DNA from: a virus
Lineage: Duplodnaviria; Heunggongvirae; Uroviricota; Caudoviricetes
Length of the DNA: 64,000 bases
Virus record (IMG/VR): IMGVR_UViG_2541047857_000014
Direction: 5' to 3' (one strand)
The stretch's first letter is position 1. Each line of letters begins with the position of its first letter. Shown piece after piece: positions 20,591 to 27,649 of the stretch. The notes under the pieces are model-generated. The model searched no databases and was not told where the DNA came from. It saw nothing but the letters and a program-made list of their open reading frames with translations. Position numbers and translations under genes: made by a program.

Positions 20591-21814
20591 ATGCGCAACA
20601 TTATCGAATTAGAACAGATATCGGAAGAACTAAAAAAACATGAACTATTGCAACCCCCATTCATTGCCGAGGGAAAACTAATTTCTGACTTTTCTAAGAG
20701 AGTCGAGTGCTATTTAGAATTAATTGACTCCATTAGAAATAAATATCCTGACAACGAGATAATTAAACAAGTAAAGATTCGCACAAAATCAATAATATAT
20801 TTATCTGATAAAATAATAGAAACTCTTAAGCTATTTTTAATAGGAAATGTTAAAGAAGCTTATAAAAAATTCGATTTGGCAATTACCAAGTCATCAATGC
20901 ATACTCATCTTTATAAGATGACTGTTCCTCTAACTAAATTATGCAACCCACACACCCCTTTATTTCGCGTAAGGAAAAGTGAGTGCATCCTAAAACAAAG
21001 AGAAGAATTATTTCATATACCATTTAAAAATAGACATTTAGTTAGCGCACAAAGATTTTCTGTATCCGGTCTTCCATGTTTATATCTTGGAACATCAATA
21101 TTTGTATGTTGGCAAGAAATGGGAAAACCTGACTTTGATAAACTTTACATATCTTCCTTCATATCCGATAAAGAAAATTCAAATATAAGAATTTTAGATC
21201 TTGGGTACAATTTAACATCTGCACTTCGTACAAAACCGGGAGATCTTTGGTATTCATTCGAACAAGGTTCAGATGATGATTACGATCTAAATAATGATAA
21301 TTTCATGGATCAAATTAATGATAAAATTTCAAAGTTGATTGCATGGCCTTTAGTCCTTGCATGTAACTATACAAAAGATAATGAAAACGCAAGTTTTAAT
21401 AAAGAATACATAATACCAAACCTATTAATGCAATGGATTAGTAGTGACAGAAACAAAAATATATCAGGGATATCGTATCGATCAACAAAGATATTAAACC
21501 AAAAAGATAGCGATATTGGGATTAATGTAATTATCCCCCCAAAAATAGAAAACATAGTTGAAACCAATGATACCCACTGTCCTGTTTTAAAAAAAATATT
21601 TAGAGTTACAAACCCTGTTTCCTGGACTGTGTTTAGTACACTAGAAGCCACCCCCTATCTATACAAAAATAATTTTAATTTTTCGACCTATAATCCCGCA
21701 AAAGGATGGATTGAAGACTTTGATGAATCCCTTGTTGAACATTATGAAAATACCACTTTTAGAAAAGTTGAACTCCTTATTCATCAAATGATGAAGTATG
21801 AATATTTAAAATAA
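20591..21814 (+). CDS. RES-domain protein (putative NAD-targeting toxin/effector), 407 aa
   Basis: Segment LFRVRK...AQRFSVSGLPCLYLGTSIFVCWQEMG fits the RES domain pattern (R-x-FNxxG-x-P-x-LYL-x-S...E); ATG 4 nt after int stop; strongly AT-rich. Confidence 0.55.
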   Translation: MRNIIELEQISEELKKHELLQPPFIAEGKLISDFSKRVECYLELIDSIRNKYPDNEIIKQVKIRTKSIIYLSDKIIETLKLFLIGNVKEAYKKFDLAITKSSMHTHLYKMTVPLTKLCNPHTPLFRVRKSECILKQREELFHIPFKNRHLVSAQRFSVSGLPCLYLGTSIFVCWQEMGKPDFDKLYISSFISDKENSNIRILDLGYNLTSALRTKPGDLWYSFEQGSDDDYDLNNDNFMDQINDKISKLIAWPLVLACNYTKDNENASFNKEYIIPNLLMQWISSDRNKNISGISYRSTKILNQKDSDIGINVIIPPKIENIVETNDTHCPVLKKIFRVTNPVSWTVFSTLEATPYLYKNNFNFSTYNPAKGWIEDFDESLVEHYENTTFRKVELLIHQMMKYEYLK

Positions 21815-21929
21815 GAGTGGCGGCATAATGGCGGCAAAGAGTTAAAAACACATAAAACAAGGTAATACATCGTAAACTTAAGTGATTGAAAATTAACATA
21901 AATAGTTGTTTTGCAACATGTTATAATGG

Positions 21930-21975
21930 TATGTAGGAATTTCGGACGCGGGTTCAACTCCCGCCAGCTCCACCA
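21930..21975 (+). other. ssrA: 3-prime fragment of ssrA (tmRNA) forming the prophage attachment-site repeat
   Basis: atgtaggaatttcggacgcgggttcaactcccgccagctccacca matches the E. coli tmRNA 3-prime end as I recall it; no tmRNA body upstream. Confidence 0.7.
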
Positions 21976-22103
21976 ATCATGATTGGACGGTGTAAGGACA
22001 ACACCAACAAAAACAGGAAGTTAGAAGTCTCAGCAGGACACCGACCAGACGGTGAGGAGACATAAAAGGATACGCAAAGGAGCCGCGGCTCCGAAGTGAA
22101 ATG

Positions 22104-22128
22104 AAAGCCCGCTGATGCGGGCTTTTTT
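22104..22128 (+). terminator. rho-independent terminator
   Basis: aaagcccgc tgat gcgggcttttttg hairpin plus T-run downstream of the ssrA fragment. Confidence 0.55.
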
Positions 22129-22360
22129 GCTTCTTCTCTTTAGCCTGATTCGACACTCTCAATGCGGCCATAAACAACAACCCACTTTTCTTATACCGTA
22201 GCCTGTCCCCCTCTTCCTGCTTTCTAACCATAACAGATGTGAGCGTTTGCTATGAGCGATATATAGTCATTCGTACCCTCCGATACTAATCATCACAGAA
22301 ATTAATATATTCATTCCTTACTGAAAAGCTATGAAGTAGATATATAGGATTGGGGCGCGT

Positions 22361-22558
22361 ATGGCACTGGACAGTTATGCATCTCCGAATATTATTCCGG
22401 AGCTAAGACAACCGAATGCCGCAGCAGGTAAGATCACGCTAGGGGGGCTGGACAGAATGGCTGTTACGCCCAGTGTGAAGAAAAGAAGGCTAAGTATGGT
22501 AGAATTTCCATACGCACAGACCTTGTTATCCGACTATACAGCCTGGAAGGCACTATGA
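22361..22558 (+). CDS. small hypothetical protein (65 aa), translationally coupled to downstream nuclease-like gene
   Basis: Stop overlaps the ATG of the next gene (ATGA); weak RBS. Confidence 0.35.
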   Translation: MALDSYASPNIIPELRQPNAAAGKITLGGLDRMAVTPSVKKRRLSMVEFPYAQTLLSDYTAWKAL

Positions 22559-23343
22559 CAAATCTACAACTGGAAGAAAGATTTAGGGCGCTTGAGAAAG
22601 ATTACGATGCGCTCATTTCCACAAAATATACTGCGCAGAACGTTCTCACTCACACTATGGAAACCTATGTTGATTCTGGTAAATATAAAAACTGGATCGC
22701 CAGAGTGAAAAAGTTAATAGAGGACAGCTACGGAAAAGAGTCTGATTATTACAATGACTTCAATACTGTAAACAGCAGGTGGTCTTCTAATTACAATACA
22801 CTGATCAAAAGTTATAAACCGTTGTTTGATGCGGCGAGAGATGATCTTGCGCACTCTGCTGTCAGTACTAATACTCCTCAAGAAGGTTCGCCGCTGAGCC
22901 TCGTACTTAATATTCTTAACAGGTTTCCGACCTTTGTTCGCCAGTTAAAGAGGCGGTACAACGGCCGTGCGCCGCTTGAAGTTAATGATGAGTATGACGT
23001 ACAGGATTTGATTTATGCACTGCTGACGCTTCATTTTAATGATATTAGGGCGGAAGAGTATACCCCCAGCTTTGCGGGCGCGGCCTCAAGACAGGACTTT
23101 CTTTTGAAAAAAGAGAAAATTGTGATAGAGGTGAAGAAAACCCGTGAATCTCTGGGAGCGGGTAAAGTTGGTGGAGAGTTGCTTATTGATATGGCGCGCT
23201 ACCGCGCTCACCAAGACTGCGATACGTTGATCTTGTTTGTATATGACCCGGATTGCTACATAAATAATCCTTTGGGCGTGAAAACCGATCTGGAATCTAA
23301 AGACGCGGAAGGAAAAGTGAAGGTTGTTATTGCGCAGTTCTGA
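22555..23343 (+). CDS. PD-(D/E)xK nuclease-like protein (putative), 262 aa
   Basis: C-terminal half has D...(Q)DFLL...IVIEVKK spacing typical of restriction-endonuclease-fold motifs II/III; GGAAGG RBS. Confidence 0.5.
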   Translation: MTNLQLEERFRALEKDYDALISTKYTAQNVLTHTMETYVDSGKYKNWIARVKKLIEDSYGKESDYYNDFNTVNSRWSSNYNTLIKSYKPLFDAARDDLAHSAVSTNTPQEGSPLSLVLNILNRFPTFVRQLKRRYNGRAPLEVNDEYDVQDLIYALLTLHFNDIRAEEYTPSFAGAASRQDFLLKKEKIVIEVKKTRESLGAGKVGGELLIDMARYRAHQDCDTLILFVYDPDCYINNPLGVKTDLESKDAEGKVKVVIAQF

Positions 23344-23387
23344 CACGCTTAAGTGTCACCTTACAGGATTAGGTTTGCGGCCGTGCC

Positions 23388-23430
23388 AGCAGGACGAGCA
23401 TGAAAAAGGCCGCTGGCACGGCCGGATTTG
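23388..23430. terminator. bidirectional hairpin terminator between convergent genes
   Basis: 11-bp inverted repeat gccgtgccagc / gctggcacggc with about 11-nt loop. Confidence 0.5.
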
Positions 23431-23724
23431 TCATCTTTGCCAGGTCAAATCAAAATCTACGTGAAAATCCGCAGGCTTAAGCTCGCAACTGCCACCACGC
23501 CCAATTAACGACGTTATGTTTACAACGTTTGAACCTGTTGAGATGGCAAGTTGAGTGTCATCTGTAAACGTGATGATTAGCATTTCAGTCTGATGAACCT
23601 GTACTCCAGTTTTCTGAAAACCAATCTGGACAGATTTCACCGTTTTCCCAACCATTTCACGGGCTTGATTGATAGAGTAATTAGCTTCAACTTGTAGGTC
23701 ATTCCTGAACTTGGGTAGTGTCAT
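23431..23724 (-). CDS. hypothetical protein (97 aa) downstream of GIY-YIG gene
   Basis: ORF co-oriented with and downstream of the GIY-YIG gene. Confidence 0.4.
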   Translation of the reverse strand: MTLPKFRNDLQVEANYSINQAREMVGKTVKSVQIGFQKTGVQVHQTEMLIITFTDDTQLAISTGSNVVNITSLIGRGGSCELKPADFHVDFDLTWQR

Positions 23725-23934
23725 TTTACATCCTCTTTAGTGAAGTTTTCGCTATTTAAATCAGCAGCATTCCTTTTAAATCACTGGCATGTCAGCAGTG
23801 GATAGTCTGAGTGTAACGTCCAGTGAGGGGAATAAATATTGGTCAGACTTTGCACAAAAGAGCCAACTATCGCGGGCTCTCTCTCATCATGTGCGAAAAT
23901 TGACCACAATATGAAATCCAGTTCCATTCCGAAA

Positions 23935-24759
<825 letters not shown>

Positions 24760-25156: not shown

Positions 25157-25335
25157 ATGCGTATTGAGATCTCCATAGCCAAAGACAAAATGACCAAATG
25201 CCAAACGGCGCTGTGGACGCGTTAAAGGAAGAATTAACCCAACACATTGGCAAGCGTTATGACGATGTGGAGATGATCGTAAAAGCCACCAGCAACGATA
25301 GTTTTTCAGTTAGACATACTGCAGATAAAGATTGA
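25157..25335 (+). pseudogene. DinI-like gene interrupted by a frameshift
   Basis: Frame 1 from ATG about 25157 gives [14 protein letters not shown] then stops; the -1 frame continues [37 protein letters not shown] (DinI-like); break lies in an A-run. Confidence 0.5.
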
Positions 25336-25759
25336 GCTAAAACTTTCGTTCAGGAAACTCTGAATGATACCTGAGAGTCTACTGAAGAGTTGTTTGTTCA
25401 CTAGTTAGCACGTAGGAAATCATTCAATACTCGCACTATCGGAAGTTCACCAGCCAGTCGTAGCACGTCCTTGCAAACGACGTGCCTACGGTTTCAATCA
25501 CCTCTCACCATCAATTCTATCAATAATAATTAAACAGCGCCTAGACAAAATAAATAACAACAAGTCAACAACCTCGACAGGATGCCGATGGGATGATGAA
25601 GAGATAAGAAAGAATAACCAGTAAAGCCCTAAAACGTCAGCGTTCAGACGCGTTTTTTACTTAATCGGTAACAAATACGTTGTATCATAGCAAAATAAAA
25701 TGATTGTTCTAAATCAGATTAACTCCTCACTTTTGTACAATGTCGCTTACAGGTATACC

Positions 25760-27649
25760 ATGAAATCCGAGACGCTAACTGTCCAACAACTTTTTCAAGA
25801 CCGCCGACAATACTGTGTTCCATTCTATCAACGTGCCTATGTATGGACTCAGCAAGACCAGTGGTCAGCTCTACTGGAGGATATCCTAGAGAAAGTACAA
25901 TCCCGGCTCTCGGGTACAAAACCAACTCCCCATTTCCTTGGTGCGGTTGTACTGGAACCTCAATCAAAAAAAGGATTATTAGGTGTAGATTCCATACATA
26001 TTATTGATGGTCAGCAACGATTGACCACTCTTCAATATGTTCTGGCATCCATCCGATTAGCATTACGTGCTACGGATCTTTCCAGCTTAGAGGCTCTCAT
26101 TTCGCCTTGCCTGAAAAACTCAAACGAAGACACAATGCGAAATAAAGAAGTAGAACGCTTCAAACTGTGGCCAACTTTTCGGGATCAAACTCATTTTATT
26201 CAAAGTTTTAATGTTGAAAATATTGACGATCTCCGGGACGTATTCTCTGATAGTTTCACGCAGCATGGTACGTTGCGTAAGCATTTTAATCACCCGCCAT
26301 CACTAGAAGCATTATGTTTTTTTACTGAAGCCTTTATAAAATGGATTAAAATAGAAAACCACTCACCACAAGAAAATGCTGTAGCTCTAATTGAGGCTGT
26401 CTTAACAGATCTGAAACTGGTAAGCATATTTCTCGAAGCTGAAGATGATGCCCAAATAATTTTTGAAACATTAAATGGGCGAGGGGCGGAACTTCATGCT
26501 ACGGATCTTATTCGCAACTATATCTTTATGTGCGCTGAGCATGAAAATATTAATGCTATTGAATTATATGAAAATGAGTGGAAGAGCTTTGAAGATAAAT
26601 ACTGGTCGGAAAAACAACGCCGTGGACGTATTAATAAACCACGCATGGAGTGGCTAGTACATGCGACATTGCAATCAGAAAGGCAACGTGAAATTGATCT
26701 GTCTCGCCTTTACAATGAGTATCGTGATTATGTAAGTAAGGACTTGTCTTCACAACGAGCAGATCTGCAAGTAAAGCGCCTCAAACAATATGCATCACAA
26801 TATAAAGAATTGGTTGATGGTTTTGGCACAACCCCCATCTCACACTTTGGATATCGCATCGCAGACTATGATGTGACGACACTTTATCCGCTTGCTTTGT
26901 TCATTTCGATAGCTAACATCGCTGATGATGAGAAAGCAGCCATGTATAATGATCTTGTCTCCTACGTAGTACGAAGAGCCGTATGTGGCCTGACGCCAAA
27001 GAATTACAACAATGTATTTATGAATGTATTGCGGCACTTGGCTAAAACGGAAATTTCCAGTGTTGAGTTACGTAATATCCTCAATAACTTAAATGGCGAA
27101 GCCTCACGTTGGCCTGGTGACTCAGAATTTCTCAACGCTTGCATCAATGCTCCACTTTATCCTGGCAGGCTCGACGCACCGAAAATGCGCTCAATGTTAA
27201 CGGAACTTGAAAGAGAACTTTGTCGCCAAGTAAAGACAGAAAAGCCTGATGTTCCAAATCTTTCTAATCTCGATATCGATCATCTTATGCCTCAAAGTTG
27301 GTATTCCTGTTGGCCTCTCGAAAATGGTCGTATGGTGACAAATTCAGATGCTACGGTATTGAACCAAATTGTTCTGTCTGGAACCGATCTTACCCCTGAA
27401 CAGCTACTGGTAAGGAAACGGCAACAAGCGATATCTACTTTGGGAAATCTAACTTTGCTTAACCTTAGCGTAAACCGTTCTGTTCAGAATGCTGTATTTC
27501 TGAAAAAACGTGATGCTCTCATCGTCCACACCAATCTACGACTGAACATTCCACTTATAGTTAAGGATAAATGGGATGAGGATGAAATCCTGGAGCGGGG
27601 TAAAAAGTTGGGGGAAATTGCATTGAAAGTATGGCCAAAACACGATTAA
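25760..27649 (+). CDS. fused DUF262-DUF1524 protein, GmrSD-like type IV (modification-dependent) restriction endonuclease
   Basis: N-terminal PFYQRAYVW and IIDGQQRLTTL motifs (DUF262) plus C-terminal DIDHLMPQSW His-Me-type motif (DUF1524); ORF from 25700, probable ATG at 25760. Confidence 0.8.
   Translation: MKSETLTVQQLFQDRRQYCVPFYQRAYVWTQQDQWSALLEDILEKVQSRLSGTKPTPHFLGAVVLEPQSKKGLLGVDSIHIIDGQQRLTTLQYVLASIRLALRATDLSSLEALISPCLKNSNEDTMRNKEVERFKLWPTFRDQTHFIQSFNVENIDDLRDVFSDSFTQHGTLRKHFNHPPSLEALCFFTEAFIKWIKIENHSPQENAVALIEAVLTDLKLVSIFLEAEDDAQIIFETLNGRGAELHATDLIRNYIFMCAEHENINAIELYENEWKSFEDKYWSEKQRRGRINKPRMEWLVHATLQSERQREIDLSRLYNEYRDYVSKDLSSQRADLQVKRLKQYASQYKELVDGFGTTPISHFGYRIADYDVTTLYPLALFISIANIADDEKAAMYNDLVSYVVRRAVCGLTPKNYNNVFMNVLRHLAKTEISSVELRNILNNLNGEASRWPGDSEFLNACINAPLYPGRLDAPKMRSMLTELERELCRQVKTEKPDVPNLSNLDIDHLMPQSWYSCWPLENGRMVTNSDATVLNQIVLSGTDLTPEQLLVRKRQQAISTLGNLTLLNLSVNRSVQNAVFLKKRDALIVHTNLRLNIPLIVKDKWDEDEILERGKKLGEIALKVWPKHD

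Follow-up and report, generated by a model that had tools for sequence, protein, structure and literature searches.

Positions 22361–23343 of the stretch of viral DNA analysed here (64,000 nt in full, called the window below) carry two overlapping open reading frames and raise the question of whether these form a coupled two-gene defence operon or whether only one of them is a gene. Both frames are present as a first-pass annotation had described them: a frame of 65 codons (ORF65, 22361–22558, plus strand), whose TGA overlaps with the ATG of a 262-codon frame (22555–23343, plus strand) in the sequence ATGA. In our view the locus is very probably one functional unit, namely a monocistronic gene that has an extended -10 promoter to itself and encodes a stand-alone anti-phage nuclease, DS-24.

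The 262-aa protein (WP_000183405.1) consists of an N-terminal helical bundle (aa 1–101), a linker and a C-terminal PD-(D/E)xK nuclease domain (aa 113–261). Pfam family PF18742 (REase_DpnII-MboI), a member of the PD-(D/E)xK clan, matches aa 117–261 over model positions 3–149 of 150 with 165.3 bits and an E value of 9.5e-49 (cut-off 27 bits), and a Pfam scan of the protein at E values up to 10 returned PF18742 alone and no second family. The catalytic motif is located in the C-terminal half in the context RQ-D181-FLL...IVI-E192-V-K194-K (plus strand; D181 at 23095–23097, E192-V193-K194 at 23128–23136). Across 21 homologues of 41–91% identity none of D181, E192 and K194 varies, and the same holds for the DEYDVQD helix (145–151), R179, the stretch D181–K185 (DFLLK), H219 and D231-P232. 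The protein shows the catalytic D...(D/E)-x-K on the alpha/beta core of restriction endonucleases, and the assignment that had been made from the spacing D...DFLL...IVIEVKK was right. The helical N-terminal domain also agrees with our data, as the first 100 residues are predicted to be helical in an AF2 model, whose pTM of 0.55 leaves the mutual placement of the two domains uncertain. Searches with the N-terminal domain alone found only fragments and members of its own family, both in a word-indexed search, which gave no other architecture, and in a phmmer search run exhaustively against 1.84 billion representatives. The N-terminal domain as a sensor module shared with other proteins was rejected, since both searches stayed confined to the own family.

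The translation of 22555–23343 is identical, with zero residue differences, to the sequence of WP_000183405.1 in Table S8 of the DefensePredictor study (DeWeirdt et al., Science 2026, PMC13092281; preprint bioRxiv 2025.01.08.631726), and RefSeq places this accession at the same locus in E. coli S88 and ATCC 11775. According to the tables of that study, the protein carries the working id RED2 and the system name DS-24, originates from E. coli (ECOR), is classed as a 'remote defense homolog' and is listed as defensive = TRUE and replicated = TRUE (PMC13092281). Thus, the 262-aa protein is already known as DS-24, a validated anti-phage defence protein. In Table S7 the -log10 EOP amounts to 7.5 for Bas1, 5.3 for Bas60, 5.0 for Bas3, 4.3 for Bas9, 4.0 for Bas6 and 3.9 for Bas11, to about 1 for Candy and SECphi27 and to about 0.8 for T4, and no effect is given for T5 and lambda (PMC13092281). 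The tables hence contain replicated plating reductions of 10^4 to 10^7 on several BASEL phages (PMC13092281). In the main text, as far as available, DS-24 is named only collectively among 14 PD-(D/E)xK proteins (PMC13092281), and nothing specific on WP_000183405.1 or PF18742 was found in the main texts of the literature; the identity came via the supplementary tables of PMC13092281. Because the protein had been published and validated, little is added here as a discovery. For DS-24 the accessible text and tables of PMC13092281 give neither a catalytic mutant nor a toxicity test nor a mechanism, and they contain no DS-24-specific analysis of promoter, genomic context or partner. What is of remaining interest is the mechanism of DS-24 and a linked gene for a 97-aa protein.

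The published clone also bears on the gene model. Each transcription unit was cloned, together with the 200 bp before and the 100 bp after it, into pCV1, a pSC101 plasmid without a promoter upstream of the insert, in the host MG1655, as described in the parts of the study available (PMC13092281). The RED2 primers gcgcgtatggcactggac and tgccagcggcctttttcatg map to window positions 22355 and 23418, and the clone (22355–23418) starts 6 nt before the ATG of ORF65 and does not include the 97-aa gene. DS-24 therefore suffices alone for defence from its native upstream 200 bp. As the clone begins so close to the ORF65 start and lacks the 97-aa gene, both are dispensable for defence and for tolerance of the nuclease, and as the vector offers no promoter, that of the nuclease gene must lie within 22355–22554.

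This stretch contains the nonamer TGGTAGAAT (22497–22505, plus strand) as a candidate extended -10 element of the nuclease gene. Each of the 15 enterobacterial relatives compared has the consensus TGnTA(G/T)A(A/G)T 45–58 nt before its nuclease ATG; the 'n' is G, T or A, the variation expected for an extended -10, whereas the remaining positions are fixed, and the Erwinia nonamer is a perfect TGGTATAAT. The conserved consensus suggests that 22497–22505 would be the promoter. A sigma-70 scan had also pointed to TGGACA-16-TATTAT (22368–22395), which was rejected as main promoter because a related cassette from Serratia has an insertion there, whereas the TGnTAGAAT box is kept in all relatives. 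A ribosome-binding site, GGAAGG (22545–22550, plus strand), can be read from the sequence 4 nt before the ATG and is kept as GGA(A/T)GG in the relatives. Downstream, a perfect 13-nt inverted repeat between the nuclease gene and the convergent 97-aa gene (23378–23424) is likely to be a bidirectional terminator, with terminator-like sites at 23423–23408 on the minus strand and 23413–23425 on the plus strand.

ORF65 lies over the putative promoter and the 5' UTR. The first-pass annotation had read ORF65 and the nuclease gene as translationally coupled members of one operon, of the toxin-antitoxin or two-gene defence kind, in which case the 65-aa protein would neutralise or regulate the nuclease. 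The ORF and its ATGA overlap do exist, and its coding sequence is still physically present in the DS-24 clone; there, however, it has neither promoter nor ribosome-binding site. Across the six frames of the window we counted 224 ORFs of at least 65 aa versus about 66 of at least 150 aa, and the overlap itself follows from the conserved Met-Thr start of the nuclease (ATG-AC), by which almost all homologues acquire a TGA in the -1 frame. No match to ORF65 was found in Pfam, NCBIfam, PADLOC or PHROG, and it is not called by PGAP in the RefSeq genomes inspected, including S88 and ATCC 11775. In the Serratia cassette, the nearest relative outside E. coli with 89% identity in DNA, the start ATG of ORF65 has become ACG, and an insertion of 13 nt and deletions of 3 nt and 1 nt break the frame and result in a different, non-homologous ORF. 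Relatives with a nuclease of 57–89% identity have no counterpart of ORF65. For Pantoea, Enterobacter, Pectobacterium, Salmonella, Klebsiella, Serratia silvae and IncX plasmids, with nucleases of 60–89% identity, DNA homology in blastn begins only at window positions 22444–22496, or within the gene for S. silvae; overall it reaches no further than about 85–110 nt ahead of the nuclease start, and the conserved upstream stretch carries indels of 4, 5, 15 and 1 nt. The frame of this stretch relative to the nuclease varies: it is -1 in some relatives and the third frame in S. silvae, whereas on the IncX plasmids the stretch is in frame with the nuclease, which explains database entries of 281–291 aa. 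Translation of the last 20 codons of ORF65 gives a seemingly conserved peptide (MVEF.Y.Q.LL), but the apparent 'MVE' is the TGnTAGAAT box with its variable base at the 'n' of the extended -10, and its ATG is GTG in Salmonella. The same GTG and the varying frame relative to the nuclease led us to reject a 20-codon leader peptide starting from the ATG of ATGGTAGAAT.

By these comparisons ORF65 is a lineage-specific chance ORF and not a gene or partner, and we consider the coupled operon extremely unlikely. The translational coupling has to be given up with it, and of the proposed small-protein-plus-nuclease defence layout the defence part stands, as DS-24 is validated, while the small partner falls with ORF65: the short frame is not conserved, and the nuclease is a recently described defence protein and not a housekeeping enzyme. 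The likeness to type II toxin-antitoxin systems and other pairs of a small protein and a nuclease is superficial, being a short ORF that overlaps the nuclease by ATGA. Unlike the small partner of a type II system, ORF65 is not conserved, has no expression signals of its own in the clone and overlies the candidate promoter; the relatives share no upstream ORF, and the only conserved element inside ORF65 is promoter-like. The gene model is thereby corrected to one gene, and the case illustrates that a conserved promoter box can mimic a conserved peptide.

How the nuclease might work is suggested by its relationship to AgaN. EcbAgaN, the long-B pAgo-associated nuclease of the EcBPAN system (PDB 23wq; PMC13535254, PMC10620215), is the only solved structure that is detectable by sequence; the match has an E value of 2e-4 when a single sequence is used and of 4e-6 with the profile of the family. 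Like EcbAgaN, DS-24 combines an N-terminal domain with a C-terminal PD-(D/E)xK domain and has the same D-EVK motif, D181/E192/V193/K194 aligning residue for residue with D298/E309/V310/K311 of EcbAgaN. The invariant DEYDVQD helix of DS-24 aligns with ENEYHVQN of EcbAgaN, a helix that holds residues of the dimer interface of the C-domain (PMC13535254). For EcbAgaN the D-EVK residues have been described as essential for DNase activity, the C-domain of AgaN alone is toxic in contrast to the full-length protein, and activation requires octamer assembly on Ago-guide-target complexes (PMC13535254). The Aga_Helical-REase models of PADLOC match the C-domain of DS-24 at an E value of 1e-26, and both these models and PDB 23wq align to aa 100–258 only. 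An AgaN-type N-domain is lacking: that of DS-24 has about 100 aa versus 220 in EcbAgaN and is unrelated in sequence, and the whole proteins have 262 aa versus 390. No Argonaute gene is found beside DS-24 at this locus, nor does one recur among the neighbours in 82 loci of the family. With no Argonaute and with an unrelated N-domain of half the size, the activation cue of DS-24 cannot be an Ago-guide-target complex.

As the homology is limited to the nuclease domain, autoinhibition of DS-24 is an analogy only, and for DS-24 being an autoinhibited nuclease that is released by phage infection we see roughly even chances. In this picture the nuclease domain at the C-terminus would be toxic in itself, and the helical N-terminal domain would keep it silent, probably within a dimer. 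Phage infection would then supply a cue that frees the enzyme from inhibition, possibly through higher-order assembly, and the released DS-24 would degrade DNA, so that either the phage genome is destroyed or the infection is aborted. Since no Argonaute is involved, the N-terminal domain would itself sense the phage cue. For DS-24 the analogy offers a mechanistic frame that the original screen lacked, that of a possibly AgaN-like autoinhibited D-EVK nuclease, with D181, E192 and K194 as putative catalytic residues, DEYDVQD as the probable dimer helix and the candidate extended -10 promoter at 22497–22505.

The name of its Pfam family suggests another mode of action. DS-24 might be an orphan MboI/DpnII-like enzyme that constitutively cuts unmethylated GATC, with Dam shielding the chromosome and under-methylated phage DNA being restricted, and the close homologues are indeed all found in Dam-positive Enterobacterales. 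The family, however, comprises at least 2,483 members when clustered at 90% and also occurs in Clostridia, Paenibacillus, Bacteroidota, Planctomycetota and others, many of these lineages being unlikely to carry Dam, and no adjacent methyltransferase is conserved. The 82 loci analysed, with proteins nearly all of about 250–265 aa, come from Proteobacteria, Bacteroidota, Cyanobacteria, Firmicutes, Planctomycetota and other phyla. As for a type II restriction-modification system, no methyltransferase flanks the gene and none recurs in the 82 loci. DS-24 does not belong to the DpnII endonuclease family proper, as PF18742 was the only Pfam family found at E values up to 10; the bona fide DpnII family is PF04556. 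Furthermore, the nearest characterised relative, AgaN, is a non-specific and regulated DNase, and the defence by DS-24 is phage-specific even though the phages were grown on Dam-positive E. coli. A constitutive GATC-cutting enzyme is thus very unlikely.

Clustering of the neighbours in these 82 loci gave no conserved partner; the only recurrent neighbours are integrases, recombinases, Abi and OLD-like genes, each in at most six loci. This distinguishes DS-24 from two known systems with related effectors. In Detocs, DtcC variants use the same PF18742 REase_DpnII-MboI domain as an interchangeable effector, and the supplementary data of the DefensePredictor authors link DS-24 by HHblits to LmuA_effector_PDDEXK with a probability of 93.9 (PMC13092281). 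These effectors work with partners, a two-component relay in Detocs and the SMC-like LmuB in Lamassu, whereas DS-24 has none that is conserved or required, and a PADLOC search of the DS-24 gene and its neighbours gave no Lamassu match and no LmuB.

One observation against a strictly single-gene model is the tight linkage of DS-24 with a conserved gene for a 97-aa protein (WP_000174562.1, 23431–23724, minus strand), which this model leaves unexplained. The gene is convergent to that of DS-24, and by blastn both form a 1.6-kb cassette (22275–23865) with 89% DNA identity to the Serratia marcescens chromosome, where it is located between LysR- and LacI-type genes; no convincing terminal repeats marking the cassette as a transposable unit were found. 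Homologues of the 97-aa protein, most of them also 97 aa long, can be traced down to 57% identity and share 21 invariant residues. In seven of eight contexts a DS-24 homologue, or what is left of one, adjoins the 97-aa gene or lies close to it: the 97-aa gene is convergent to an adjoining homologue in E. coli, Serratia, Enterobacter kpr-6 and Kosakonia and divergent from it in Erwinia, adjoins a nuclease remnant in Salmonella and is 2.4 kb away from a DS-24 homologue on a Citrobacter plasmid. Identity declines in step for the two proteins (94/91, 86/87, 84/85, 70/57 and 57/61%), and the 97-aa gene is present in 113 E. coli genomes, a number equal to that with close DS-24 copies.

These data could point to a two-gene module in which the 97-aa protein acts, without being strictly required, as a buffer or inhibitor, as a trigger adaptor or as an expression regulator of DS-24. 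If true, it could tune the activation, limit self-damage or widen the phage range. In that case the 1.6-kb cassette with both genes would be the natural unit, passing from one species to another without encoding a recombinase, and DS-24 would be an Argonaute-independent relative of AgaN in which a four-helix N-terminal domain senses the phage directly. However, DS-24 defends strongly without the 97-aa gene and the clone is tolerated, and the gene is absent beside the 89%-identical Pantoea genes, from all copies on IncX plasmids and from all non-enterobacterial homologues. A Pantoea ananatis plasmid shows the opposite case, the 97-aa gene without a nuclease and adjoining a D12-class methyltransferase. 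The protein has no recognisable domain and its AF2 model is poor (pLDDT 54). As most DS-24 homologues do without it and the published clone works without it, the gene is at most accessory. Physical hitch-hiking in the 1.6-kb cassette would equally give parallel divergence and explains the linkage about as well as a partnership does. We therefore consider such a module unlikely, and we are similarly doubtful that, within the enterobacterial branch of DS-24, the 97-aa protein acts as a true accessory partner. Together with the conserved promoter box, the linkage of the 97-aa gene goes beyond what the available parts of PMC13092281 contain.

The genomic setting of the stand-alone DS-24 gene and its neighbour is an ssrA-anchored defence island. 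As had been claimed, the locus follows directly after a prophage att scar: by blastn, window positions 21931–21975 (plus strand) are 100% identical to positions 319–363 of ssrA (tmRNA) from ATCC 11775, that is its last 45 nt, which form the attR core of a P2-like prophage, and a partial tmRNA match in Rfam ends at 21975. Besides this fragment Rfam gave nothing between 21800 and 25700, and ARAGORN found no intact tmRNA or tRNA in the whole window. The DS-24 locus (from 22361) starts 386 nt past this copy of the ssrA 3' end. In S88 and in the window a P2-like prophage with genes including a CI repressor, an integrase and a 407-aa cargo gene is inserted in ssrA. In ATCC 11775 the DS-24 locus is located directly 3' of an intact ssrA, and the identity downstream of 21975 continues. 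Judged by these alignments, the nuclease locus is older than the prophage insertion. The window is E. coli sequence of the B2/ExPEC type, and its region 21900–23500 is 100% identical to that in S88, MS7163, UTI89, NU14 and ATCC 11775. On the 3' side the nuclease gene is followed by the convergent 97-aa gene, PD-T4-3 (a GIY-YIG protein; PADLOC E value 9e-137), a DinI-like pseudogene, the type IV restriction enzyme GmrSD (PADLOC mREase_IV, 1415 bits), a recombinase fragment and prophage tail genes, and DS-24 thus shares the island with PD-T4-3 and GmrSD.

Among 5,426 complete E. coli genomes, copies of DS-24 with at least 95% identity were found in 113 records, all of them chromosomal. Some match to DS-24 is present in 267 of the 5,426 genomes, those beyond the close copies being paralogues of 60–80% identity, and 166 of the 321 matching places in E. 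coli are plasmid-borne. On IncX1 and IncX4 plasmids the DS-24 paralogues adjoin Abi-family genes. In summary, DS-24 belongs to a defence island adjoining ssrA in B2/ExPEC E. coli and has paralogues on IncX plasmids. A tblastn search of a phage genome collection gave no match. As a separate observation, one PHROG family shares the nuclease domain with DS-24.

The gene for DS-24, the 262-aa PD-(D/E)xK defence nuclease, converges with a gene on the minus strand (23431-23724) whose 97-aa product, WP_000174562.1, is a conserved protein of unknown function that has homologues in enterobacteria and gave no match in a domain search. In seven of eight enterobacterial contexts a DS-24 homologue is linked to this 97-aa gene, with three arrangements being found, and in the window the 97-aa gene lies beyond the bounds of the functional DS-24 clone. 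Between the two convergent genes, at 23378-23424, we found an inverted repeat whose 13-nt arms match perfectly across a 21-nt spacer; this repeat is probably a bidirectional terminator common to both genes.

The left edge of the cassette, the 1.6-kb segment that carries both genes, is formed by about 85 nt (22275-22360) that are strongly conserved among E. coli, Serratia and Enterobacter kpr-6 with the pattern TCCGATACTAATCA...CTTACTGAAAAGCTATGAAGTA.ATA.ATAGGATTGGGGCGCG and that are missing at the other DS-24 loci. A search of this stretch against Rfam gave no match and no repeat matching it was found at the right edge of the cassette.

The ssrA-adjacent island with DS-24 contains two more known defence genes, namely PD-T4-3 of the GIY-YIG type (23935-24741, minus strand; PADLOC E 8.6e-137) and, on the plus strand at 25700-27649, a type IV restriction enzyme of the GmrSD type (PADLOC mREase_IV, 1415 bits), with a DinI-like pseudogene (~25198-25335) between them. 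The P2-like prophage carries a 407-aa cargo gene, WP_001244285.1, between its integrase and attR (20591-21814, plus strand), which falls in phrog_7835, a family of unknown function, and has no match in PADLOC or Pfam. It is listed as a 'predicted novel defense gene' (log-odds ~8.2) in DefensePredictor Table S10, and the part of Table S6 that was covered does not give it as a validated DS system (PMC13092281).

Many DS-24 homologues, P0004, P0007, P0011 and P0014 among them, are named 'malate dehydrogenase' in GenBank and UniProt. As PF18742 is the only domain in the homologues so named, this label is evidently a propagated mis-annotation. Paralogues of DS-24 with 64-69% identity are encoded on IncX1, IncX4 and other E. 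coli plasmids (loci L083, L084 and L085), and on conjugative IncX plasmids they are located in accessory regions, adjoining Abi-family (AbiD/F-like) genes. A full-length copy is present in about 180 plasmid records.
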